A stretch of DNA of 64,000 bases from Naegleria gruberi (taxonomy: Eukaryota). The notes beneath the pieces are model-generated. The model worked only from the letters and a program-made list of their open reading frames with translations, did not search any database and was not told the origin of the DNA. Shown here piece after piece: positions 4,071 through 60,939 of this stretch (within the stretch, counting starts at the first letter, position 1; each line of letters begins with the position of its first letter). A program made the position numbers and the translations under genes. The stretch is taken from assembly GCA_000004985.1 (NCBI GenBank), contig GG738885.1. One strand, written 5' to 3'.

Positions 4071-4723
4071 TTTTTAATGATGACAAGATTGCAATCAATA
4101 ATAATACACTTTCGAATAGTTTTTTTCACAGTGTCTACAACTACCCTTTCTGCCTGTTTTTTTAGAACTGTATTGATGTTGCCATGACAGCAAACTTTGA
4201 CTCTTTGCTAGTTGATACCTTTTTTGGAAGATGGATGATTACTATTTAACAAATGAGCCAGTTGAAGTATTTCCACAACGTAAAAAAAGATTTTAGGAAT
4301 GAAAGAGATAAAAAAATTTTTGAAAATTATTAAATATCGAAAATCGAGTTTTGATAATGAAGGAATTGATGAGGAAAAGCAAAACTGAAATTGGAAAGGA
4401 ATGGGAGATGGGTTATTGGTGTGGAGATTTGATGGATTTTTATGGATGTTGTATGACAAAAGTATGGTTGGACTTGTTGTTTATTGATTGGATGGGTTAT
4501 TTAGTAAGGTTTCTTTAGTATACACATTACAATATATTCGAAACTTGTAAAATTATAAAATGTGAAAAAAACATAGATGATGAAATATGTTATCTTCGAT
4601 CATTTTGACCTTAGAGGAAATCCGCCTTTAAGTTTATTAACAAAGAGATGATGACGCGCTTAATGCGATACTGAACACATTTTAATTGACACCTGAATTA
4701 ATTTCTCTGACATTTAGAAAAAA

Positions 4724-17483: not shown

Positions 17484-17604
17484 GGCTACGGCCATATCAC
17501 GATTCATGCACCTCATCCCGTCCGATTTGAGAAGTTAAGCATCGTCGAGCCACATCAGTACTGAGGTTGGAGACAACTTGGGAACCTGTGGTGCTGTAGT
17601 CTTT
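17484..17604 (+). rRNA. 5S ribosomal RNA, copy 1
   Basis: GGCTACGGCCATATCACG...CCCGTCCGATTTGAGAAGTTAAGCATCGTCGAGCC...GGGAACCTGTGGTGCTGTAGTC. Helix I pairs 5' GGCTACGGC with 3' GCTGTAGTC. A T5 Pol III terminator follows directly. Confidence 0.9.
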
Positions 17605-17606: not shown

Positions 17607-19072
17607 GCCTTATCAGAATGTGATACTAGTGTTACTTATCAAGTTTGCCATCTTTATGGTCAATCCAGTTTGCTTCTCTCTTTCTTTCCATTATTCCAAA
17701 CAGCTTCGTTGGATTGATTACCTACATTGCTCCATCATCAATTAGTAATTAAGATTCACTACATGTTCAATAATTGTACTAGGCATTATTATTTATTAAA
17801 ATACCACAAACATTTAGCCAATCCTCACTCGACAACAAACAGAATAAATACAATGATCCTTATGTAATACTCAAAACCATCTTTCTCGGCCAATTGGCTT
17901 TGATCGAGTATCTATTCTTTTCAGTTTAATAGCTGAAAGCAGCCCACGGGTTGCATTACTATTAACTCAATTTTTTGTAGGGATCAGGGGTTGAGCTTAA
18001 TTGCTCACTTTGATTTGGTTTCAATCAGACATTGCACAAACCGTCAGATTAGGAGCCACCCAACTCTTTTTATTAATTGAAAATTCATTGCGCATTGAGA
18101 ATCTCAATCAGAGTAAAATTGAGTTTTTTTTCAAATTCCGAGCTTGTATGATGACGAAGATATTAAATTAAATAATAGTAAGCATGATGAGGGACCCAAA
18201 CCATGAACAAGATGGAGGATAAATTGAATCCATCAAATATCAAATGCAGTCCTCCAACTTCGTGTACTGCATTCATTAAGGCTGCTCCTTCATTGAAAGT
18301 AGAAACAAAAAAACAATTAGTTCCTTTGAATACAAACAAAATTCTGGATAACTTTCATTGTTTAAAGAAAAATGGAAGGTAAAGCACAAGAAATCCAAAA
18401 TGTAATTTCATTAAAGTGAAAAACATTATTTGGTAAATTTGTTCAATTTCAAGAGGCACAAGATTTATTACTGGACAAAGCAGTATTAAAATACATCAGA
18501 TGCATAGAAAACGTTCATTGGTTTTTTGAGCTCAACTTTGCCAAGTTCAGTTGAGTATCTGCTTGTGATTTTTGCAGAAAATAGGTCAGTATAATCTGAG
18601 GTTATCTTCTTTATGGTTTTAAGAGATGATCATTTGAAAATCGAGAATTAGGTAGACTAGATGCTTTTATCGATATTTTGAATATTAAAATTAAGAGATG
18701 AAGTGAAAAATTAATCTCGAGTGCCGGGAATTGAAACGCTCCTGCCTTTTGGTTGAAGTAAAATTTCAAACAACCTTCACTGCAATTCTTCTTCTTTGTG
18801 TTATTAAAAAAACAAAAGGCATTGAGAGCATTCAAATTGAATTTGCTTCAAAACAGACTTTCTTAAATCATTTATATCCACTCTAGATACCTTACTTAAA
18901 TTATCAAGTGCTGACGGATCATATCTCTCTTATATAGTACAGTATCGAGAAATTTAAGTTAATGGAAGGAACATTAGGTAAAGGTAATGACTCGAAAGCA
19001 TCTCCAAAATTCCACATACACGATTTCACAATTTTCAAATATTCTTTTGAATTGGTTTATTTAGCAATCACA

Positions 19073-20439: not shown

Positions 20440-21340
20440 TCATACTTCCTGTATAATACTACTTAGTACTAAGTGATGTTAATTGTTTCATTTCACTTAT
20501 GAATTTGAATCCTTCTACACTAATTTGATTTCCACCAATATCAAGTGATTTTAATTGTCTCATTTCACTTATAAATTTGGCTCCTTCATCACCAATTTGA
20601 TTTCCACCAATAACAAGTGATTTTAATCGTTTCATTTCACTAATAAATTGACTCCTTCATCACCAATTCGATTGTTATAAATAGTCGAGTGATGTTAATT
20701 GTTTCATTTCACTTATTAATATGGCTCCTTCATCACCAACTCGATTTCTACCAATACCAAGTGATGTTAATCGTTTCATTTCGCTTATTGATTTGACTCC
20801 TTCATCACCAATTCTATTGTAACTAATATCAAGTGATGTTAATTGTTTCATTTCACTTATAAATATGGCTCCTTCATCACCAATTCGATTTTCAGAAATA
20901 TTAAGTGATGTTAATTGTTTCATTTCAATAATAAATTTGACTCCTTCATCACCAATTCGATTGTTATAAATATAAGTGATGTTAATTGTTTCATTTCGCT
21001 TATTGACTTGGCTCCTTCATCACCAATTCGATTTCCACCAATACCAAGTGATGTTAATCGTTTCATTTCACTTATTGATTTGACTCCTTCATCACCAATT
21101 CGATTGTTACTAATATCAAGTGATATTAACTGTTTCATTTCACTTATAAATTTGGCTCCTTCATCACCAATTCGATTTTACAAATATCAAGTGATGTTAA
21201 TTGTTTCATTTCAGTTATGAATGTGGGTTTTTCTATAGAGTCAAACAACCTTTTAGTAAATATAACATTAACAATACTATTCATAAATTGACTTTTCGTG
21301 AATAATTCATTCTTTTCACCAATTCTTTTTAAATATATCA
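20440..21340 (-). pseudogene. degenerate tandem partial copy of the adjacent F-box-like/LRR gene (frameshifted LRR repeats, no N-terminal region)
   Basis: About 12 copies of the 72-nt LRR unit are present (MKQLTSLDISNNRIGDEGVKSISE) with 1-3 nt indels. Three ORF pieces lie in different frames (20675..20923, 20920..21138, 21144..21341). Piece 21144..21341 repeats ELFTKSQFMNSIVNV..RLFDSIEKPTFITEMKQLTSLD from the intact gene. Confidence 0.55.
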
Positions 21341-21960
21341 AGTGATGTTAATCGTGTCATTTCACTTATGAACTTGACTCCTTCATCACCAATTTGATTT
21401 CCGCCAATATCAAGTGATTTTAATTGTTTCATTTCACATATAAATTTGGCTTCTTTATCACCAATTCGATTGTAACATATATCAAGTGATGTTAATTGTT
21501 TCAGTTCACTTATAAATATGGCTCCTTCGTCACCAATTCGATTTTCAGAAATATTAAGTGATGTTAATTGTTTCATTTCACTTATTGATTTGGCTCCTTC
21601 ATCACCAATTCGATTGTTATAAATAGTAAGTGATGTTAATTGTTTCATTTCACATATAAATTTGACTCCTTCATCACCAGTTTGATTGTTATTAATATCA
21701 AGTGATGTTAATTGTTTCATTTCGCTTATTGACTTGGCTCCTTCATCACCAATTTGATTTCCACCAATACCAAGTGATGTTAATCGTTTCATTTCAATTA
21801 TTGATTTGACTCCTTCATCACCAATTCCATTGTTATAAATACCAAGTGATATTAACTGTTTCATTTCACTTATAAATTTGACTCCTTCATCACCAATTCG
21901 ATTGTTACTAATATCAAGTGATGTTAATTGTTTCATTTCAGTTATGAATGTGGGTTTTTC
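20440..21960 (-). repeat. 72-bp tandem coding repeat array (ribonuclease-inhibitor-type LRR units)
   Basis: The unit ...gtgatgttaattgtttcatttcacttat(a/t)aattt(g/t)gctccttcatcaccaattcgatt... is reiterated about 20 times across the pseudogene and the intact gene. Confidence 0.8.
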
Positions 21961-25240: not shown

Positions 25241-26889
25241 TTATAAAATGATAACTTCTTGTGGTGGAGGCGTTAAAGGCTTTGGATTATTTACAATTAT
25301 TGAAATATCTGTGTAAAAATCTGTAACTAATCTACGCTTCATTCTAGCAAATGTCCAAGCTAGCCTAGTATTCTCTTTCTTAGTGAGATAAATGCTACGA
25401 GATTTAGAGCTAGTAAATAATTGATAAGAAAAGGAAGGGTTTTGTAGAAAAGAGTTGGGCAAGAGAATTCTATGAGGTACAGAAATGTCTCCCTCAATCT
25501 TTTCACAATAACTTGAACCAGTGATGTAAAAGTGTCCCTTTTTGGTTCCAAATACAGAACATGCTCTTCCTGCATGAATTGAAGTAATGAGCTCGTTAAC
25601 AGTGTTAATTCTTGTAGGCATATTCCTATCGGAATAATCTCCTAATCCTAATTGGCCATGCTTGTTTCTTCCTGAACAATAAAGCTGATTATTCCTAGTA
25701 AGGAAAAGAGTATGATTCCATCCACAAGCAATCATTGAAATGGATTGGTTGGAAAAGTGCTTCTTATCGATCAGAGTAATATCTGACCTCGATTTAAAGT
25801 CTTGTAACCCAAGTTGACCATAAGAATTCCTTCCACATGCAAAAACTTGTCCTAATTTTGTCAGAAATACAGAATGCAACTCGCCACAAGATGCAAATAT
25901 AACATAATCATTACTCTCCACCAATTCATCAAAGAATGTCAGTCTACTTGGTATTTTTATATCAACATCTCCATACATTTCTCCACAGAAATAGACCTTG
26001 TTGGTTCTTGTTATCATGATGGTATGATACGATCCACAAGCAAGTAGTTTGACCTTCTCATCAATTCTCGTCTTGGAAAGTGTGTTTACTCTACAATAGT
26101 CCTCTCCCAAATAATTTTCATCATTGACACATCCAATCTGTCCATAAATATTATATCCTAATTAGCCAGTTGCATGAATTTTGTAATAATATTAGACCAA
26201 AACCAATGTTCCACCAACAACTTACCCACTCCATACACCTGTCCATCTTTTGTCAATATCATACTATTTCTTTTACCACAAGCAATGTCTTTAATTTCTA
26301 AATCTTCCAAACAAAATTTCAAAATGTGTTTGTATACAGTAGAGTGTACAGTGCTACTAATATTCAATTGAGAATCAGCATTCTTTCCAATTGCAAATAT
26401 CCTATTCTTACTTGTTAAAATTAGAGTATGCCAAGATCCAGATTCAATCTTTTCAATATTTTCATCAATATCCAATACAGTAGACTTGATACTTTTCACT
26501 TGATGATCAATATTATTCATGCACAAGACTCCACCTTTACAGAATGCATTCATCCTATTGTTTTTGTGAGGGATCTTTACAAAGTGATCAATTTGCTCTG
26601 TTTCTTCTTGTTGTTGCAACTGGGAATCAACAATTAAAACATGTTCTTCAACAAATTCATCACCATACACAAATAATTCATTGGTTCTTAAAGGCTTTCT
26701 CTGTAAAATCTTGATCAACTTGTCATCATCAAGCACAGTTTCGGAACAATTAATTTCCTCATTAAATAATAGCAAGGAACCACTACTAGATGAATGTTGA
26801 TGATTACTACTACTAGTAGTATTATGATTATTATTAATTAATAGAAAGGGAACAACAGTCGTATCATCATCATAAATAATTTGCGTCAT
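25241..26889 (-). CDS. RCC1-repeat protein, 2 exons
   Basis: Exon 1 is 26226..26889 and exon 2 is 25241..26157 (donor GTAAGT, acceptor ...AATTAG, phase-consistent). The junction gives ...GQVYGVG|GYNIYGQIG. RCC1 blades are ACGWNHTLFLTRNNQLYCSGRNKHGQLGLGDYSDR and ASCGELHSVFLTKLGQVFACGRNSYGQLGLQD. Confidence 0.75.
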
Positions 26890-35600: not shown

Positions 35601-37340
35601 ATGCCATCATATATTTTGTTTGAAAGTGCTTTGGGCTTTGCCATCTTTGAAAAGAAGAAGGTCGATGAAGTCGCCTACTCTAAAATTGAAAAACAAGTTG
35701 GAGAATATAGTCGCTTCAAGGATATGGTCAAATTCATTGCTTTCCAACCATTCGATACACCAGAACACGGTTTGGAAAACATGAACGCCATCTCTGAAGG
35801 TATTTTGACAGAGTTTTTACAAAACTTCTTGGAAGCTAATTTGAAAGCTAAGAATGACACCCAACTTGGTGTTTTGGAAAACAAATTGGGAGGTGCTATT
35901 CAAGAACACTTTGAAAAGAAGATTACCTGTTTCACTGATGATTCCGTATTGGGATTGTGCCGTGGTATTCGTATGCATATTCATAAATTCATTGATAACT
36001 TGAAGAAGGGTGATTTGGAAAAGGCTCAATTAGGTTTAGGTCACGCTTACAGTAGAGCTAAGGTGAAATTCAACGTTAACAAGTCCGATAACAACATTAT
36101 ACAATCTATTTCTATGCTCGATCAATTAGATAAGGATTTGAATACATTCACCATGAGATTGAAGGAATGGTACGGATGGCATTTCCCAGAACTTGTTAAG
36201 ATTGTAAAGAAGAATGATGCCTATGCTAAATGTGCACTTGCCATCAAGACTCGTTCCAGTCTTTCCAAGGATAGTGAAAAGTATGATGAATTGGTTCACC
36301 AACTTAATGATATAACAAAGGATGAAGAAGTCACTGAACAAGTTGTCAGAGCTGCTCGTTCTTCTATGGGTCAAGATGCTTCCGAATTCGACATGATGAA
36401 TATGGAATTGTTTGCCAAGAAGGTTGTCGATTTAACTGAATACAGAGCTCAATTGTTCGAATATTTGGAAACCAAGATGCACGACGTTGCTCCAAACTTG
36501 ACTTGTATTTTGGGTGAATCTGTTGGTGCTCGTTTGATTTCTAAGGCTGGTAGCTTGATGAACTTGTGTAAATGTCCTGCTTCAACTGTCCAAATTTTGG
36601 GTGCTGAAAAGGCTTTGTTTAGAGCTTTGAAGACCAGAGGTAAGACACCAAAGTATGGTTTGCTCTATCACTCTAGCTTTGTCTCAAAGGCTTCTAAGCA
36701 AAATAAGGGTAAGATTGCTAGATACTTGTCAAACAAGTGTGCTATGGCTGCTCGTATTGATGCTTTCCAAGATTTCCCAACTTCTAAATTCGGTGAATTG
36801 TTGAGAGATCAAATTGCTGAAAGATTAGAATTCTACGAAAAGAAGGCTTCATCTGGTAATGCTAAGATCACTGTCAAGCTCAAGAAGAATATTGAATTGA
36901 TGAGAGATGCTATCAAGCATGCCAAGAAGGACGAAAAGGAAGCTCCAAAGAAGGAAAAGAAGCCAGCTGAAAAGAGAAAGAGAGATGCTGTCGAAACTCC
37001 TGTTGAAGAAGAAAAGAAATCCAAGAAGGAAAAGAAGGACAAGAAGAAGGACAAGAAGGATAAGAAAGAAAAGAAGTCCAAGAAGGAAGAAGAAGTCATG
37101 GAAGATGAAAAGCCAGCCGAAGAAGAAAAGAAGTCCAAGAAGGAAAAGAAGGATAAGAAGAAGTCCAAGAAGGAAGAAGAAGTAGAAGAACCTGTTGCTG
37201 AAGAATCCAAGAAGGATAAGAAGAAGAAGGACAAGAAGGAAAAGAAGGAAAAGAAGGAAGAATCGGTAAAGGAAGAAAAAGAAGAAAAGAAAGAAAAGAA
37301 GGAAAAGAAAGATAAGAAAAAAGATAAGAAAAAGCATTAA
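35601..37340 (+). CDS. NOP56: nucleolar protein NOP56 (box C/D snoRNP core protein) with K/E/D-rich tail
   Basis: NOSIC/Nop domain blocks are seen: AQLGLGHAYSRAKVKFNVNKSDNNIIQSISMLDQLDKDLNTFTMRLKEWYGWHFPEL and GARLISKAGSLMNLCKCPASTVQILGAEKALFRALKTRGKTPKYGLLYHS. The KKEKKDKK tail is present. These blocks are closer to NOP56 than to NOP58. Confidence 0.9.
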   Translation: MPSYILFESALGFAIFEKKKVDEVAYSKIEKQVGEYSRFKDMVKFIAFQPFDTPEHGLENMNAISEGILTEFLQNFLEANLKAKNDTQLGVLENKLGGAIQEHFEKKITCFTDDSVLGLCRGIRMHIHKFIDNLKKGDLEKAQLGLGHAYSRAKVKFNVNKSDNNIIQSISMLDQLDKDLNTFTMRLKEWYGWHFPELVKIVKKNDAYAKCALAIKTRSSLSKDSEKYDELVHQLNDITKDEEVTEQVVRAARSSMGQDASEFDMMNMELFAKKVVDLTEYRAQLFEYLETKMHDVAPNLTCILGESVGARLISKAGSLMNLCKCPASTVQILGAEKALFRALKTRGKTPKYGLLYHSSFVSKASKQNKGKIARYLSNKCAMAARIDAFQDFPTSKFGELLRDQIAERLEFYEKKASSGNAKITVKLKKNIELMRDAIKHAKKDEKEAPKKEKKPAEKRKRDAVETPVEEEKKSKKEKKDKKKDKKDKKEKKSKKEEEVMEDEKPAEEEKKSKKEKKDKKKSKKEEEVEEPVAEESKKDKKKKDKKEKKEKKEESVKEEKEEKKEKKEKKDKKKDKKKH

Positions 37341-37966: not shown

Positions 37967-40900
37967 TCAATAAAAAGCACAGACAAGAGCAACCAACATC
38001 AAGATCAAACATTGTAAACCACTTCTTGAATTGAGTGAGTGAGCTGATGATACAGCACGTGCATTGTCACTCGATACAATAAAATTGGAAATTACAAAAC
38101 CTTCAGCTTGATCCAATTCATCTTGTAATGATCTTTTTGAAACTGAAGCCAAACCAATATTTGTCTGAACGAAACAAGATCTTGCTTGTGCACTTGATGA
38201 TGGGAAGAGAGAAGGTTCAAGGGCAAATGAAAAGGTGGAAACATAATTAGAACTTGATGGATAAATAATTGTGGAAACTTTGGAATTGGCAATATTATTG
38301 GAAATTATTGAATGTTGGACATCCATTGAGGAAGAATTGAATTTGGAGCATCCAAATTGACCAAGTGATGGATTATAAATCAATGAGAATATTGTCTCTT
38401 TGAAACAGCAGAAATAGGCATCAGTGACAGCTAGACGTGAGCTAGAACTTGTAAAGGTTGATGATTGTACATTGGAAAACACTCTGTCACCTGTTTTGAA
38501 GGTTGTTTTTGGAGACCAATCATTTCCTGCCAAGTACATTGATCCCTGTATTGTGATATTCTTTTCAGTTGGTGGGGTAACAATGGTATATTCGATTTGG
38601 ATTGGGAAATATATAGTTGTAATGTCTGTAACACCCTTTCTAGTGAATGTTCCAGTGAAATAGGTAAGAGCTCTATAATCATTGGATGTAGTAAGGGATT
38701 CGAATTGAATTTGATAGAAATTCGAATCACCATTTTGGAATAAAAAAGTAGATTCAGTAACTTGCATGGAATAAGCAGCTGTAGTATTGAAGAAAGTAAA
38801 CGAATTCAATGTCAAATTAGTTGCTTTCAATACAACTGAAATAGAGAGCTTTCCACTAGATGTAGTTGTTACCTCTTGTGGATAAACATTAGTTGCATAG
38901 CCATAGATTGGATTATACTGAGAGAATGATCCAATTACTGTTCCAGATTGAATGTAAACTAATTGATAAGTTTTGAATTCGTATGATCTACAGAATCCAC
39001 CATTTTGAGAACCATCTCTATCAAGGTAATTCATGGAAATAGGAAGCTTAAGAACCAACATATTTGAAGAGTATTGCTTAATCACGAGAGGATTTGAGAT
39101 TAAATCATCAATTGTGAATTCTGGAGTTGAGTAAATGGCTTGACATTTAGATTTACCAATCAAATTCAAGGCGATACTTTGATTTCCATTCACTGAACAA
39201 TTCTTGAACTTGGATTCACCAACAAAGAATAAATGTTCGTAAGGAACAGCATCAAGTTTGTACGAAACTGTAAATGAAATGGCCTTTCCAACAATGCTCG
39301 ATGAAATAATTGGACTTGGAGCACCAAATGCTTGAACATTAGTCCACAAACATTCAGAACCTACTACTGGAATACTACAATTCAATCCAGTAAATCCAGC
39401 ATTGCATGTACAATTATTACTTCCAGAGCAGTAACCTCTTCCCAAAGCAAAGGAGCAATTATTCAATGAAACATCATCACATGAGAAGGAGGAGCAATTG
39501 GTTGCTGATTTCCATCCAGAGCTGCAGTTACACTTGTTTGGAGCAAAACAATCACCATGTCCAGAGCAAACTGTTTGATTTGTACTGATCTTACCATCAC
39601 AAATAGGGAGATTACAATTGACACCACCATATCCAGTACTGCACACACAAGTGTATGGAGCTACACAAGATCCATGTCCAGAGCAAACTGTTGGATCTGT
39701 ACTGAGTTTACCATTACAAACTGGGATATTACATTGAACACCTGCATAACCGTTCAAACACCAACATGCACCAGGAGCAATACAAGCTCCATGTCCAGAA
39801 CAAACAGCACTTGCATTATTACTGAGCTTTCCATAACAAATAGGAAGACTACAATTGATACCACCATATCCAGTACTGCACACACAAGTGTATGGAGCGA
39901 CACAAGATCCATGTCCAGAGCAAACTGTTGGATCTGTACTGAGTTTACCATCGCAAACAGGCAGATTACATTCAGAACCTGCATAACCATTCTGGCAATA
40001 ACATGAATCTGGAGCCAGACAAATACCCCTTCCAGAACAAACACTTGCATTATTACTGAGTTTACCATAACAAATTGGAGTTTCACATTTAGAACCAGCA
40101 TATCCAGCATTACATGAACAAGTATCTGCTGCAACACATTGTCCATTTCCATTACAAACACTTGAATCATTTTGGAATTTACCATAACAGGAAGCTATTT
40201 CACATGAAGAACCATGGTAACCTGGTTTGCATGTGCAAATATTATTGGAAAGACAAGCACCTCTGGATGGTCCACCACAAGCATTACTCCCACTTTGACC
40301 AAAACAGGTAAAAGCAGAAGCACATTCACTTCCATAATATCCATCCTGACATTGACACTTATTATACGAAACACATGTACCCTTCGAACTGCATGCAGCA
40401 CTTCCAACCTTCAAGTAGCACATTGGCTTATCACAATTAGCACCACCATACATTACTGCACTTTCGGCCAATGGGAATACCAATTGTTGCCAACAAATTT
40501 TCCCCACTGAATCATAAACCATAAAATTTCTATCTGGTCTAACCACCAATCTGAAAGGACTAACACCTCCACTGCAACCAGAAGAGAATGTAAGATAATT
40601 CGAATTTCCATTATTTAGATTAAATGCTCCATTACTATTATCCAATTTAATGTAATAATTCGAATAACCTGGATAGTAACCTTGTGCCCAATCTGCATAT
40701 CCAGCACGTTGATACAGAACGAAATTACCATCATTTTGAAGAATAAGATATTCATCATTTTGTGGGTTGTAAATTTGTACTAATTTTGGGATGGATCCAT
40801 TGATGGAGGAGTGCATGTAATTTCCAGACGAAAGGTCAAGACATTCGCAGGTATCTTGAGCTTTGCAGAGACCGTTTCCACCACATACTTGCATGTCTGT

Positions 40901-42324: not shown

Positions 42325-42445
42325 GGCTACGGCCATATCACGATGAATGCACCTCATCCCGTCCGATTTGAGAAGTTAAGCATCGTCGAGCCACATCAGT
42401 ACTGAGGTTGGAGACAACTTGGGAACCTGTGGTGCTGTAGTCTTT
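42325..42445 (+). rRNA. 5S ribosomal RNA, copy 2
   Basis: Same 118-nt body as copy 1 with 2 internal substitutions (GATGAATGC versus GATTCATGC). A T5 run follows. The flanks are unrelated to those of copy 1. Confidence 0.9.
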
Positions 42446-51719: not shown

Positions 51720-51792
51720 TGCTGACGGACGGGATCGAACCGGCGACCAATGGCTTATTAGACCAACGCTCTACCGACTGAGCTACGCCAGC
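51720..51792 (-). tRNA. tRNA-Ile (anticodon AAT)
   Basis: The minus-strand read is GCTGGCG-TA-GCTC-AGTCGGTA-GAGC-G-TTGGT-CTAATAA-GCCAT-TGGTC-GCCGG-TTCGATC-CCGTC-CGTCAGC-A. The D-arm and T-loop (TTCGATC) are canonical. The acceptor has one G-U pair and the T-stem has one mismatch. Confidence 0.8.
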
Positions 51793-51993: not shown

Positions 51994-53173
51994 ATGGAGA
52001 AAGCAAAAAAGAAAAAACTAGTGTCGCTCCAACGAGAAGAAATATTTTCCGATGATATTTGTTTTGAAATAATTTCCATGATTGATAATTCGTGGTTTAT
52101 TTTGAATAATTGTTCCTTGATTTCAAAACAATTCTTTAATGTGATCAAGGAACGTTCAAAACTTTTTATTAAATTTAAAAAGAAATTTACAGAGAAAAGA
52201 ATTAAATTATTCATGAAGAGTCAATTTATGAATAGTATTGTTAATGTTAAATTTTCTAAAAGGTTGTTTGATTCTATAGAAAAACCCACATTCATAACTG
52301 AAATGAAACAATTAACTTCACTTGATATTAGTAACAATCGAATTGGTTATGTAACAGCCGAATCAATAATAAGTGAAATGAAACAGTTAACATCATTTAA
52401 TATTAGTGGAAATAGCATTGATGATGAAACAGCCAAATCAATAACTGAAATGAAACAATTAACTTCACTTGATATTAGTAACAATGGAATTGGTGATGAA
52501 ACAGCCGAATCAATAATAAGTGAAATGAAACAATTAACATCATTTAATATTGGTGGAAATATCATTGGTGATGAAGGAGCCAAATCAATAAGTGAAATGA
52601 AACAATTAACATCACTTAGTGTTAATAACAGTGGAATTGGTGTAGCAGGAGCCAAATTTATAAGTGAAATGAAACAACTAACATTACTTGATATTGGTGA
52701 AAATTCAAGTGGTGTAGCAGGAGCCAAATTTATAAGTGAAATGAAACAATTAACATCACTTAATATTGGTGGAAATAGCGTTGGTGTAGAAGGAATCAAA
52801 TATATAAGTGAAATGAAACAATTAACATCACTTACTATTTATAACAGTGGAATTATTGAAATTAACACTACTTGATATTGGTAGAAATGATATTGGTGAT
52901 GAAGGAATCAAATCAATAATTGAAATGAAACAATTAACTAAACTTGATATTAGTGGAAATAGCATTGGTGTAGAAGGAGTAAAATCAATACGAAAACTGA
53001 AACAATTAATATCACTTGATATATGCTACAACGAAATTGGTGTAGAAGGAGCCAAATCAATACGTAAAATGAAACAATTAACATCACTTGCTATTCGTGA
53101 AAATGGTATTCGTGATGAAGGAGCCAAATTTATATTTGGAATGAAGCAATTAAAATCACTTGATATTCAGTAG
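51994..53173 (+). CDS. F-box-like + LRR (RI-type) protein, inverted paralog of 21316..22332; reading frame broken near 52855-52865
   Basis: ORF 51994..52875 has an N-terminus more than 95% identical at nucleotide level to the 21316..22332 gene. ORF 52847..53173 continues the LRRs in another frame. The junction NSGIIEINTT lacks about 8 nt relative to the repeat consensus (gaaat[gaaacaat]taaca). Confidence 0.7.
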
Positions 53174-55230: not shown

Positions 55231-56841
55231 ATGGCATTGGTTATAGTGGATCCAGATGGAAAATCACCTTCCTATATAAATGATATTCGATCATCTCAAC
55301 AGCATCAACAACGGGAGCAGGTTTCCACCGATCATTTATTGATTCATCATCAACATTTATCCAACTCTGCATTAGATGCATCACCAACACAATGTGAGCT
55401 ATCATGCAACCACCCCATCTCTCGTACAATTCCAATGCATCATAATGTTACTATGGGAGCCTCAACTTTGTTAACAACACACTCAGTCGGCGCTCAAGAC
55501 AAATGCCCAGAGAAGGATATATCAAGAATGAATAGCTCCATAAATACGTATGACCTTAATCAATACTCACCTAGACCAAATATGCCCAGTGAACCCTCGC
55601 GCTCTGATGGCGAATTATCTAAAAACGAAGGCACGCAACTCTCAATCTCTGTTCATGGTCACTCTCAATTGTTTACTGTTGACAAAGTGGGGCAATATGT
55701 CCAACAAGTTTATAGCCAAGACCCTAAAAACAGTGAGGATTGCCTTCCAAAATCAGATACTCGAATCTGCACGTTCTCCAAATATCAAAGTAATTTCCAA
55801 TATTACGCAAAAAAAGAAAGTGAACATTATCGCAATCAATCAATGAACTGGGTTCATTCAAACAATCACCTCATGATGATGGATAATAATAAGGGTTCAC
55901 AATTAAACCCATTACAGAAAGATCAACCATCACACTCTTCAACACAGCAGCAGCAATTGTCCCAACATCATCACATAATTGACTCTACTCAGAAAAACAC
56001 CCTTAATTCTCCACAGCATTGCATCATGAACCAAGAGAATAAGTCCATGCCCACTACAATGCCAAATAATACTTCTAGTAGTAGTAGTAGGAGCAGTAAC
56101 ATGGTAAATCATTACATGTCTCCATCAAAGAATCACATCTTAACTCTTAATAATACTATTCCTCTCACAACTACCTCATCATGTACATCAACTAAAATCA
56201 TATCTACCTCTTCACTCTCTGAAACAAATCAACAAATCACATGTCCTACAAATCATCATGTTCTCCAGCAACACATGTACCCATCCTCTCAACATGCCTT
56301 AACAACATTGGGATCCTGCTCTGGTAGCTCATGTAACAACAGCTTGAGTGGAGGGGAAGAGAATAGTACCACAACAACCAGTGAAAAGGTTCAAAGCTCA
56401 CAAACCAAAACAAGCAATAGCAGGTCGAGAGCAACCAAAACTCCTCGTAAAAAGTACCGAAGAAGTCTATGTATTGAGGAGAGAGATTTACTTAGAGTAT
56501 TGCATTTACCACAAACTCAGGCATGTAGCTCGTTGGGGTGTAGTCTTTCAACTTTAAAGAGGAGATTTTACGAACTCAAAGATAAGATTGGTATTGATAA
56601 ATGGCCACAATTCTACAATGATATTAGACATTTAGAGGCCTTTCCACACATTTATCCAATGTCTTTGGAGTTTGTAATGAACGATGAACAAGCCAATGAA
56701 AAATATCTATCAACAGAATGTATGCATGCATTATCAAAAGCATTTGAATGTAGTACATTGGCAAAACCATCACAGAAGGGATATGCCAAATTGGTTTTTG
56801 CTGACCCTTCACATGGCATTTCTAAAAAGAAAAAGAAGTGA
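55231..56841 (+). CDS. low-complexity (Q/S/T/N-rich) nuclear-type protein with C-terminal RWP-RK-like domain
   Basis: The C-terminus SLCIEERDLLRVLHLPQTQACSSLGCSLSTLKRRFYELKDKIGIDKWPQ resembles the RWP-RK motif (L-G-x-S-L-T-T-L-K-R...W-P) in a divergent form. Confidence 0.45.
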   Translation: MALVIVDPDGKSPSYINDIRSSQQHQQREQVSTDHLLIHHQHLSNSALDASPTQCELSCNHPISRTIPMHHNVTMGASTLLTTHSVGAQDKCPEKDISRMNSSINTYDLNQYSPRPNMPSEPSRSDGELSKNEGTQLSISVHGHSQLFTVDKVGQYVQQVYSQDPKNSEDCLPKSDTRICTFSKYQSNFQYYAKKESEHYRNQSMNWVHSNNHLMMMDNNKGSQLNPLQKDQPSHSSTQQQQLSQHHHIIDSTQKNTLNSPQHCIMNQENKSMPTTMPNNTSSSSSRSSNMVNHYMSPSKNHILTLNNTIPLTTTSSCTSTKIISTSSLSETNQQITCPTNHHVLQQHMYPSSQHALTTLGSCSGSSCNNSLSGGEENSTTTTSEKVQSSQTKTSNSRSRATKTPRKKYRRSLCIEERDLLRVLHLPQTQACSSLGCSLSTLKRRFYELKDKIGIDKWPQFYNDIRHLEAFPHIYPMSLEFVMNDEQANEKYLSTECMHALSKAFECSTLAKPSQKGYAKLVFADPSHGISKKKKK

Positions 56842-57180: not shown

Positions 57181-58201
57181 TTACAACAGACTACATTTGC
57201 CAGACTTCTTCTTTTCTGAGCTTTGATCTGGACTCTTTGGATCCAAAACACATTCGATAACATAGTTGAAAGTTTCCTTCAATCCTTCTTGTGATTTAGC
57301 AGAACATTCCGAATAGTATTGAGCTCCAACTTCCTTGGCTACTTTTTGTCCTTCTTCTGAAGACACTACTTGTAATCCTTCTCTTTGAAGATAGTCTTTA
57401 TCCTTACGAAGATCAGCCTTAGTTCCTGTGAGAACAATTGGCACTTTTGGACAGTGCTATTTAAATAATTTAAAGTTGTTTGTTTACATGCATGTAACAA
57501 CAGATATGTGTGCACACAAATTTCAACATATATTGATGTTCAACATGTTAAAAGTATAAAGAATAAATAAATCTTTTCAAGTGGTGTAGAGTACTACTTA
57601 CATGTTTAACTTCCGGAACCCACTTGGCCTTTACGTTCATTAAACTTGTATGATTGACAACAGAGAAGCAGACGAGGAAAACTTGAGCATCAGGATAAGA
57701 CAATGGTCGCAAACGATCATAGCTGAAAATTATTTAGCCTAAAAATTCTTCTACTAGAAGATTACTTACTCACTATTAGAAAGTACAATAAATATTGTTG
57801 ATGAAAATTTGAAATTACTTACTCTTGACCAGCTGTATCCCACAAACCCAAAGATACTGTTGTATTCTTGTACATTACGTTAGCAGACTGTATTTTCACA
57901 ATAAAATTGACGTCAAAATAAAGAGTTTGACAGGTAAATTGTCAAGTAAAAGATGATGAAATAAAGCAGCACCAGCAATGATATTAACAATAATTATTAG
58001 AAACACTCTAATCTCTCAAAATACTTACATAGTTATCAAAGACTGTTGGTACATAGTCTTCTGGGAAAGTATTCGAAGAGAAACTAAACAACATGTCAAG
58101 CTCTCAAAAACAAAACTCATCAACACTACTTACGAAATCAATAAACAAGTTTTACCGACAGCACCATCACCCACAACAACACACTTTATAGAGGTATCCA
58201 T
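57181..58201 (-). CDS. Rho-family small GTPase (Rac-like), 5 exons, CAAX = CSLL
   Basis: Exons on the minus strand are 58134..58201, 58029..58083, 57823..57887, 57602..57722 and 57181..57456. All donors are GTAAGT and all junctions are phase-consistent. The product is [85 protein letters not shown]...[25 protein letters not shown]...[14 protein letters not shown]...[10 protein letters not shown]. Confidence 0.85.
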
Positions 58202-59047: not shown

Positions 59048-60739
59048 ATGATTTCGTCTGTGCCTCCTCCACAACCTTCTGCAACGGTTGCTGTTGAGGA
59101 TCTCCATCATCAGCCTAGGACCAAATTTACTAACCAGGGCAATAATGAATTGCCTCATCATCATCATCAGCATGATGGTATGGTGGATGATGAAGAGGAG
59201 AGTGTTATGATTCGTTATCATGATCGTCAGAATAATTTTGGAATTTCTGGTAAATTAATTCATGATCGAGATGATGATCAGCAGGGTGTTGGTGGTTCCG
59301 ATCATATGAAGAACAATATCGAATTTCAAAATGTTGAATTATCTTCAAATAATAATGGAAAAGTAATAATGGAGAGGAAGGAGAAGGAAATATTGAGTGA
59401 TCATGGAAATAGAATTGATAGTCAACAACAGGAAGTGGTAAATAATTCATCATTGGAACCAAAAGACAAATATCACATGATTACAATAATATTCTTCATT
59501 CAGGGAATGGGTGAATTATTTCCATGGAATGCAATGTTATCAGCTGTGGATTACTTGTTGGCTCTTTATTCTGAACAAAAAGTCATGTTGTGGATGACAT
59601 CTGTATATAGTTTGATTACTTTAGTGACATTGTTGCTATTGATTAAGTTTGGAACTCATATTAGGTACAGATATAGGATTTATATACCTTATGTAATATT
59701 GATTGGATTATTGATTGCTGTTCCATTACTTTATGTGATTATTGGAAATAGATTGGCTGAATTTATTATTCTAATGGCGATTGTCTCAGTAATGGCTGTT
59801 TGCACAGGATCTATTCAGTCTTCAGTTTATGGAATTTCCAGCAAGTTACCTCATCACTATATGAATACGGTAGTGTCTGGAAGTGCTTTTGCTGGTCTAT
59901 TTATTAGCTTATTGAGGATTTTAACAAAGGTTACCATAGAGAGTGGGTATGAGGAAGTTCCTATTGAGATATTATCAACCTCAACAATTATTTACTTTTC
60001 GTTTTGTGCAGCTCTCAACGTGGTTTGCATTGCTACCTTTATCATTTTGGAAAGGTCACCATTTGTTCAATATTATTTGAATCAGAAAGTGGAAGATCAA
60101 GCTGATGCTAATAGAGATCATGCTGAAATTACATCAATTAAGAACATTTTGACAAATATTTTCAAGAATGTTTGGATTAATTGCTTGACTATATTCTTGA
60201 ACTTTTTCGTATCATTAACAATTTTCCCAGGCCTTTCAAGTGCCATTCCATCCATTTATGTTGGAACCTCTATGGAAACATGGTTGCCAATTTGGTCAAA
60301 TTTGACATTTCAAATCTATGATTTTCTTGGAAGAATTGCATATTATTGGATTGATATATTACCATCTGGAAAATTCATCCCGATTGAGTCACTTCCACCA
60401 ACAACTTCCAAATACGAATTATTTAAAAGAAAATTGAGAGTTTCTACTCAAGAGATAATACTTCTCGTTTTGGTTTTGATGAGATTTATCTTGATACCTT
60501 TATTTATATTTTGCTTGAATCCAATGCTTTTTAAACATGATGCAATTCCATTGATATTCATGTTTGTCATGTCATTGTCAAATGGTTATTTCAACAGCAT
60601 ACTCATGTCGAGTGCTCCTAAGAAATTTGTAAATTTACATGAGAAGGAAATCACAGCAACAACAATGACATTCTTTTTATTGTTGGGAATTTCTGTGGGC
60701 TCAAATTTTGGTCTAATTTTAGGATTAATACTGCTTTAA
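59048..60739 (+). CDS. equilibrative nucleoside transporter (ENT/SLC29)-like membrane protein
   Basis: The ENT-type first TM is IIFFIQGMGELFPWNAMLSAVDY. About 11 hydrophobic segments are present. The N-terminal extension is hydrophilic and H/D-rich. Confidence 0.55.
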   Translation: MISSVPPPQPSATVAVEDLHHQPRTKFTNQGNNELPHHHHQHDGMVDDEEESVMIRYHDRQNNFGISGKLIHDRDDDQQGVGGSDHMKNNIEFQNVELSSNNNGKVIMERKEKEILSDHGNRIDSQQQEVVNNSSLEPKDKYHMITIIFFIQGMGELFPWNAMLSAVDYLLALYSEQKVMLWMTSVYSLITLVTLLLLIKFGTHIRYRYRIYIPYVILIGLLIAVPLLYVIIGNRLAEFIILMAIVSVMAVCTGSIQSSVYGISSKLPHHYMNTVVSGSAFAGLFISLLRILTKVTIESGYEEVPIEILSTSTIIYFSFCAALNVVCIATFIILERSPFVQYYLNQKVEDQADANRDHAEITSIKNILTNIFKNVWINCLTIFLNFFVSLTIFPGLSSAIPSIYVGTSMETWLPIWSNLTFQIYDFLGRIAYYWIDILPSGKFIPIESLPPTTSKYELFKRKLRVSTQEIILLVLVLMRFILIPLFIFCLNPMLFKHDAIPLIFMFVMSLSNGYFNSILMSSAPKKFVNLHEKEITATTMTFFLLLGISVGSNFGLILGLILL

Positions 60740-60865: not shown

Positions 60866-60939
60866 GCGCCGTTAGATCAGTTGGTTAGATCGTCAGCTTT
60901 ACACGCTGAAGGTCAAGGGTTCGACTCCCTTACGGCGTA
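60866..60939 (+). tRNA. tRNA-Val (anticodon TAC)
   Basis: GCGCCGT-TA-GATC-AGTTGGTTA-GATC-G-TCAGC-TTTACAC-GCTGA-AGGTC-AAGGG-TTCGACT-CCCTT-ACGGCGT-A. The anticodon and T stems are perfect. Positions 1:72 form a G:U pair. A T5 run starts 3 nt downstream. Confidence 0.85.

Follow-up and report, generated by a model that had tools for sequence, protein, structure and literature searches.

A predicted 3-nt exon most likely explains the one-residue gap in switch II of a Rac-like GTPase from Naegleria gruberi

Very short exons and a Rac-like gene of N. gruberi

Three-nucleotide microexons that alter protein function by a single residue have been described in cytohesin-1/2 (PMC6314551) and in Drosophila homothorax, where the exon is named micro-Ex8 (PMC7392893). 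In plants, annotation pipelines overlook microexons of 15 nt or less, which leads to small protein defects in conserved regions, and the missed exons can be recognised by protein conservation together with strong flanking GTRAGT donors (Yu et al. 2022, PMC8831610). An exon of 1 nt has also been reported in Arabidopsis (PMC4674806). Here we describe a candidate for such an exon, the trinucleotide TGA, in a Rac-like gene of the heterolobosean N. gruberi. The analysis was performed on a window of 64 kb (the whole stretch of DNA considered here; 33% G+C, in keeping with N. gruberi). As in cytohesins and homothorax, the candidate exon is internal, has a length of exactly 3 nt, contributes one residue to a structured domain and can be omitted in frame. 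The animal exons are however regulated alternative exons that lie between long introns and depend on dedicated splicing factors, whereas the N. gruberi exon is predicted from its sequence to be constitutive and is flanked by introns of 50 and 47 nt. It most likely works like the constitutive ultra-short microexons of plants that annotation has missed, although these belong to another kingdom and to other genes and are backed by RNA-seq and RT-PCR. Recursive splice sites, or ratchet points (AG/GTAAGT, the slash marking a splice boundary here and below), occur in long Drosophila and vertebrate introns. The N. gruberi arrangement is similar to these in that an acceptor abuts a regenerated strong donor inside a seeming single intron, which implies stepwise removal. 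In contrast, a ratchet point is an exon of zero length within a very long intron, whereas in N. gruberi 3 nt would be retained within an interval of about 100 nt.

The first-pass annotation of the window had flagged positions 57800-57835, which lie within a gene that it described as a Rac-like GTPase. This assignment was borne out: the gene is on the minus strand, and its five-exon product matches Pfam PF00071 (Ras) over residues 6-173 with 169 bits (cut-off 21.6) and has Rac1/2/3 and Cdc42 as its best PDB matches throughout. The five-exon model joins 58201-58134, 58083-58029, 57887-57823, 57722-57602 and 57456-57181, with GTAAGT at all donors and AG at all acceptors. Exon 1 (68 nt, with the ATG at 58201) encodes the P-loop GDGAVGKT and ends with 2 nt of a split codon, exon 2 (55 nt) covers the switch I region, and exon 3 (65 nt) ends with GAT ACA GCT GGT CAA GA, that is DTAGQ plus 2 nt. 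The following long exon (121 nt), which becomes exon 5 in the revised model described below, runs from C TAT GAT CGT TTG to the codons for EVKH, and the last exon (276 nt with the stop codon) encodes the G4 motif TKAD, a short Rho insert, the G5 motif CSAK, a polybasic tail and CSLL. Intron 1 (58084-58133, 50 nt), whose position is shared with N. fowleri, intron 2 (57888-58028, 141 nt) and intron 4 (57457-57601, 145 nt) are all of the GTAAGT...AG type. Splicing according to this model gives an intact in-frame CDS of 585 nt, whose product of 194 aa contains DTAGQDYDRL and is residue for residue XP_002674299.1 (EFC41555.1, UniProt D2VNU5), deposited as "rho family small GTPase [Naegleria gruberi strain NEG-M]".

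The top solved relatives of this product are structures of human RAC1 (PDB 1MH1, 5FI0 and 1I4D; E = 1.5e-70, about 60% identity), and the G1-G5 motifs, switch I, Rho insert and polybasic-CAAX tail of RAC1 are all found in the N. gruberi protein too. Since G1 (GxxxxGK[ST]), G3 (DxxGQ), G4 ([NT]KxD) and G5 (SAK) are present together with the equivalents of the catalytic Gly12 and Gln61, the protein does not appear to be a GTPase-deficient form of the Rnd/RhoH type. The Rho insert, located between beta5 and alpha4, is 3 residues shorter than that of RAC1, to which it aligns with a gap of this length, and the AlphaFold2 model places helices in it at residues 117-121 and 123-129. A polybasic region and the CAAX box CSLL are found at the C terminus, and the final Leu suggests, by the established CAAX rules, that the N. 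gruberi Rac is geranylgeranylated. When aligned to the solved Rac and Cdc42 relatives, the five-exon product shows a gap of one residue after the catalytic Gln. A switch II of canonical length (Q-x-D-Y-D-R-L) is found in the six-exon model described below but not in the five-exon RefSeq model, and the 195-aa protein encoded by the former differs from RAC1 in having Asp (GQDD) instead of Glu (GQED) after this Gln. With the microexon counted in, every sequence-level feature of the Rho/Rac family is found, which places the predicted protein in this family. With its P-loop, DTAGQ, TKAD, CSAK, shortened Rho insert, polybasic tail and CSLL it would be an ordinary Rac-like switch.

The C terminus differs in the N. 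lovaniensis orthologue (PYSW02000005.1; locus L003, about 4236-4380; protein P0122), which reads through the point where the CAAX box and stop codon lie in N. gruberi and N. fowleri, continues with ...GKCKLAARKNS... and ends with ...AKLCNF after 235 aa. This model has no prenylation box, owing either to a true loss or to a fault in the assembly or the annotation.

The switch II junction

In the first-pass annotation exon 3 ended at ...GGTCAAGA/GTAAGT and the next long exon began after ...TTTTCAG/CTATGAT. Both borders were found, at 57823 and 57722 respectively, and joining them shortens switch II by one residue, as had been stated; this model is the deposited gene model (XP_002674299.1), reached independently. 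The first of these donors had been described as the only GT donor present. This proved incorrect, since the sequence contains another perfect GTAAGT at 57769, which directly follows AG/TGA at a distance of 53 nt from the first. The presumed single intron 57822-57723 (100 nt), which reads in full gtaagtaatttcaaattttcatcaacaatatttattgtactttctaatAG/TGA/GTAAGTaatcttctagtagaagaatttttaggctaaataattttcag, indeed holds ttctaatAG/TGA/GTAAGTaat, with the 3-nt exon TGA at 57772-57770. It splits around TGA into two canonical GT-AG introns, 3a (57773-57822, 50 nt, GTAAGTAAT...TTCTAATAG) and 3b (57723-57769, 47 nt, GTAAGTAAT...AATTTTCAG). The trinucleotide completes one Asp codon (GA/T) and opens another (GA/c), so that CAA GA, TGA and C TAT GAT combine into CAA GAT GAC TAT GAT, which encodes Q D D Y D. 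The resulting six-exon model has a CDS of 588 nt and encodes 195 aa with DTAGQDDYDRL and a switch II of normal length, and each of its five donors starts with GTAAGTA. Neither the RefSeq model nor that of the first-pass annotation contains the microexon; both the automated annotation (RefSeq/UniProt D2VNU5) and the first-pass model link the two outer sites, donor and acceptor, and would thereby have skipped it. Canonical splicing had been said to delete a switch II residue. With two GT-AG introns around TGA it would instead restore the DTAGQDDYDRL found in the orthologues and in a published correction.

To search the interval exhaustively we considered all internal exons bounded by AG and GT that keep the frame, and found just two, TGA and the overlapping TAA. 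We rejected the latter (57768-57766), since its GTAATC donor is weak and its product, QDNYD, has no counterpart among the orthologues. Among 200,000 dinucleotide-preserving shuffles of the intron, AG/NGA/GT occurred in 0.9% and AG/NGA/GTAAGT in a fraction of 4.5e-5. Across both strands of the window GTAAGT occurs 22 times and AGTGAGTAAGT once. The sole other AG/NNN/GTAAGT of the window, ggAG/TGG/GTAAGT at 26230 on the minus strand, is without a preceding pyrimidine tract and looks like an ordinary exon end and not like a second 3-nt exon.

We also enumerated all single excisions with borders up to 15 nt either side of both sites. None of them gave Q[DE]DYDRL, and the lone GT-AG pair among them was the one that yields QDYDRL. 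A single intron with non-GT-AG or shifted borders that would restore the motif, for which we found nothing beyond its mention in the first-pass annotation, is refuted by this enumeration as far as products with the canonical motif are concerned, and we regard it as extremely improbable.

The corrected protein is present in a published supplement. In Additional file 10 Table S8 of Herman et al. 2021 (BMC Biol 19:142, PMC8296547), XP_002674299.1 carries an asterisk for "manually corrected gene model", and the protein listed has 195 aa, differs from RefSeq solely by DTAGQDDYDRL, is paired one-to-one with N. fowleri "Rac32" and bears no pseudogene flag. The translation of our six-exon model is identical to it. 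In its methods this paper describes such corrections just with the words "manually inspected... corrected whenever necessary", the basis being unstated. The accession XP_002674299.1 was not found in the main texts of papers, the match having come from the supplement, and the microexon itself is not known to have been explicitly described. The exact 195-aa protein was absent from a collection of 15 billion proteins, and a contig look-up by the exact RefSeq product gave none on record. We consider it very probable that the N. gruberi locus encodes an ordinary Rac in six exons, one of them the TGA microexon, and that the loss of one residue is an artefact of the gene model.

Orthologues, constraint and intron positions

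The nearest proteins are N. fowleri FDP41_002297 ("Rac32"; XP_044563190.1 / KAF0978477.1; NfowleriV212_RP54), with 92% identity, N. lovaniensis C9374_012660 and Willaertia magna ABK040_008233. All three contain DTAGQDDYDRL, in which the residue after Gln is Asp and not the usual Glu. The inclusion of TGA keeps the frame and restores at the protein level the GQDDYDRL of these orthologues. The motif GQEDYDRL had been called universally conserved, which is not the case given that GQDDYDRL is found in the three orthologues and in several other proteins. The spacing is nearly invariant: two residues separate Q and Y in 243 of 244 switch II motif instances (from 242 retrieved Rho-family sequences, both proteins and fragments), the lone exception being the N. 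gruberi RefSeq model itself, with one residue. A search for GQ-DYDRL proteins with a doubled 20-aa motif returned only fragments of at most 69 aa, and the deletion was present in none of the 12 inspected, a result that bears on short fragments and not on full-length proteins. Among environmental N. gruberi-like loci the best match had 71% identity, and no independent copy of the junction was found.

The genes of N. fowleri and N. lovaniensis have GGN CAA GAT GA/GTAAGT...AG/C TAT GAT CG at this point, that is CAAGATGA/GTAAGT...AG/CTATGATCG, and the N. gruberi exon ends plus TGA correspond to this codon for codon, the codons CAA GAT GAC TAT GAT being shared with both species. Exon lengths are 68/55/65/121/276 nt in N. 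gruberi and 68/55/68/121/276 nt in N. fowleri, with all other intron positions identical. The sole discrepancy over the whole gene is at the end of exon 3, where N. gruberi has 3 nt fewer than the two other Naegleria species, whose exon 3 comprises 68 nt and closes with CAAGATGA. Intron 3b has the position and phase of the single switch II intron of N. fowleri and N. lovaniensis. Intron 3a is in neither of them: TGA forms there the last 3 nt of exon 3, whereas in N. gruberi a 50-nt intron lies between. As a separate exon the microexon is thus not conserved in the three genomes examined (N. fowleri, N. lovaniensis and W. magna), which bears on its age.

The comparison with N. fowleri, in which exon 3 is exactly 3 nt longer (as it is in N. 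lovaniensis), had suggested a 3-bp exonic deletion or an error, with the NEG-M assembly lacking a GAT/TGA triplet where exon 3 ends because of an assembly or sequencing fault or an allelic variant. In the window, the "missing" TGA lies 50 nt further downstream and has splice sites of its own, and an error would not make a 50-nt GT...AG insertion. We dropped this explanation on finding TGA with its splice sites, and give it almost no credit. In all, the suspicion that something was wrong at the junction was justified and the outer exon borders were correct, but of the explanations that had been offered for it (an atypical switch II, a non-canonical site or a sequence error) the evidence favours none. 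Most likely no switch II deletion, non-canonical splice or sequence error is needed, and the residue concerned would be Asp, not Glu, in this orthogroup.

We then considered selection on the protein. Over the 176 codons of the G domain, comparison of N. gruberi and N. fowleri gave dN = 0.026, dS = 1.19 and dN/dS = 0.022, values that indicate strong purifying selection on this domain. When Willaertia is taken as outgroup, 2-3 conservative replacements are unique to N. gruberi, compared with 1 in the sister species, and the N. gruberi rate is not accelerated. Under a constraint of this strength a deletion beside the catalytic Gln is unlikely to be tolerated. Moreover, because synonymous sites are near saturation, an unused AG/TGA/GTAAGT would not be expected to stay intact, unless the insertion were very recent.

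These values bear on the possibility that the RefSeq model is right, in which case the ~100 nt would leave as one intron and the Rac would have a switch II one residue short (DTAGQDYDRL), being either functionally divergent or newly damaged. The outer donor and acceptor are indeed strong and canonical, their product is in frame and matches the deposited annotation, and 3-nt exons are difficult to splice; in addition, one among the more than 80 Rho-family genes of N. gruberi could drift, and the apparent CAAX loss of the N. lovaniensis orthologue hints at looseness in the orthogroup. This possibility leaves however unexplained the precisely placed AG/TGA/GTAAGT, with its chance of about 4.5e-5, and the conservation of the TGA nucleotides and of the old donor despite a dS of about 1.2, while a dN/dS of 0.02 without rate acceleration is contrary to relaxed constraint. 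The short spacing is found in none of the 243 other motif instances (241 other Rho-family sequences), and expert curators replaced the model in question. A search of 241 million metagenome records with a degenerate DNA pattern also found no coding sequence for WDTAGQDYDR, which is a weak argument as the search had no positive control. An atypical Rho with altered switch II would arise only if the microexon were skipped, and all the comparative evidence argues against this. We consider it very unlikely that the deposited model is correct.

Across the four orthologues three intron positions fall within 5 nt: CAA/GAT in Willaertia, CAAGA/T together with GATGA/C in N. gruberi, and GATGA/C in N. 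fowleri and N. lovaniensis. The W. magna gene has one switch II intron (locus L002, 3270-3331), 2 nt upstream of the position of 3a, and a Willaertia paralogue (locus L009) has no intron at the switch II codons. These staggered positions could reflect sliding, gain or loss. Intron 3a may have been gained in the lineage of N. gruberi or else lost in that of N. fowleri and N. lovaniensis; as a lineage-specific gain 3 nt upstream of an existing intron, it could have created the microexon. Two origins for intron 3a were tried and rejected. In the case of a tandem duplication, introns 3a and 3b share just the 11-nt GAGTAAGTAAT, and the similarity of their interiors does not exceed that of shuffles; in the case of an introner-like mobile element, no further copy was found within the 64-kb window.

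Splicing of the microexon and surroundings of the gene

Introns of 50 and 47 nt appear feasible in this gene given that its intron 1 has 50 nt and that the introns of the Willaertia orthologue have 42-63 nt. Each short intron of N. gruberi is probably recognised as a unit (intron definition). A point against the microexon is mechanical, since acceptor and donor complexes separated by an exon of 3 nt would nearly coincide, a demanding arrangement. As the 3a acceptor and the 3b donor are only 3 nt apart, and recognition complexes could hardly occupy both sites at the same time, introns 3a and 3b would probably be removed one by one. Removal of 3a first would recreate the N. fowleri-type junction CAAGATGA/GTAAGT, in the manner of a recursive splice site that keeps 3 nt. 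The two sites that border the TGA microexon agree fully with the consensus of this gene (GTAAGTA), from which its constitutive use is predicted.

The omission of TGA is likewise in frame and the 194-aa product is compatible with the reading frame, so the two forms could both be made if TGA were an alternatively included cassette that toggles one switch II Asp. Alternative microexons of 3 nt are known to modify function through a single residue in cytohesins and homothorax (PMC6314551, PMC7392893). In contrast, the relatives make the long form only, from a fused exon, and the two internal splice sites are consensus-perfect (GTAAGTA at 5/5 donors), from which constitutive use is expected. Moreover, in intron-definition organisms, where short introns are recognised as units, retention of introns is common relative to the skipping of exons, which is infrequent. 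We therefore leave only a small chance to a genuine cassette, which would produce a 195-aa Rac (GQDDYDRL) and a 194-aa Rac (GQDYDRL), for example according to life stage (amoeba, flagellate, cyst). If it were real, splicing would tune switch II geometry and the coupling to GEFs, GAPs and effectors by a single residue. Inclusion predicts the junction sequences ...GCTGGTCAAGATGACTATGATCG..., CAAGATGACTATGAT, ACAGCTGGTCAAGATGACTATGATCGTTTGCG and ...GGTCAAGATGACTATGATCG..., and skipping predicts ...GCTGGTCAAGACTATGATCG..., ACAGCTGGTCAAGACTATGATCGTTTGCG and ...GGTCAAGACTATGATCG..., while intron retention would give CAAGAGTAAGTAATTTC and TAGTGAGTAAGTAATC at the junction. AlphaFold2 did not discriminate between the forms, as the 194-aa form and the 195-aa form of N. 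fowleri had the same fold and a switch II pLDDT of 67 and 70 respectively.

For the databases, this means that XP_002674299.1 / D2VNU5 most likely carries an artefactual deletion of one residue directly after the catalytic Gln, and that alignments, motif surveys and structure models using D2VNU5 would wrongly suggest an atypical Rac. It also means that 3-nt exons exist, or are at least strongly predicted, in a heterolobosean with short introns, where standard gene finders miss them, and other one-residue gaps at Naegleria exon junctions merit the same scrutiny. The switch II intron positions of the four orthologues also offer a compact setting in which the gain, loss or sliding of introns can be studied, and the gene may serve as an example of microexon splicing in a deep-branching protist. 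Rac biology itself is unchanged, and since the corrected protein has been published the result is no major surprise.

Several other features were observed in the window. The downstream neighbour of the Rac gene, convergent with it, is conserved beside the N. fowleri orthologue; it is a 536-aa ORF at 55231-56841 (+) with an RWP-RK-like C-terminal motif (LHLPQTQACSSLGCSLSTLKRRFYELK). The upstream neighbour, at 59048-60739 (+), is a 563-aa multi-pass membrane ORF. The Rac region is flanked by tRNA-Ile(AAT) at 51720-51792 (-) and tRNA-Val(TAC) at 60866-60939 (+). Two 5S rRNA genes lie 25 kb apart, at 17484-17602 (+) and 42325-42443 (+), and a U2 snRNA gene at 17877-18064 (+) begins about 275 nt downstream of the first copy. 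An apparently Cys-rich module encoded on the minus strand forms a tandem repeat of 117/237 nt at 39535-40189, and a purine-rich AAG/GAA low-complexity array (Lys/Glu-coding) is found at 37005-37332. Finally, tandem arrays at 20471-21953 and 52294-53168 have a common 72-nt unit in opposite orientation, with 24 aa per unit and an LRR-like sequence (...MKQLTSLNISENRIGDEGAKS...), and probably belong to paralogous LRR genes 30 kb apart.
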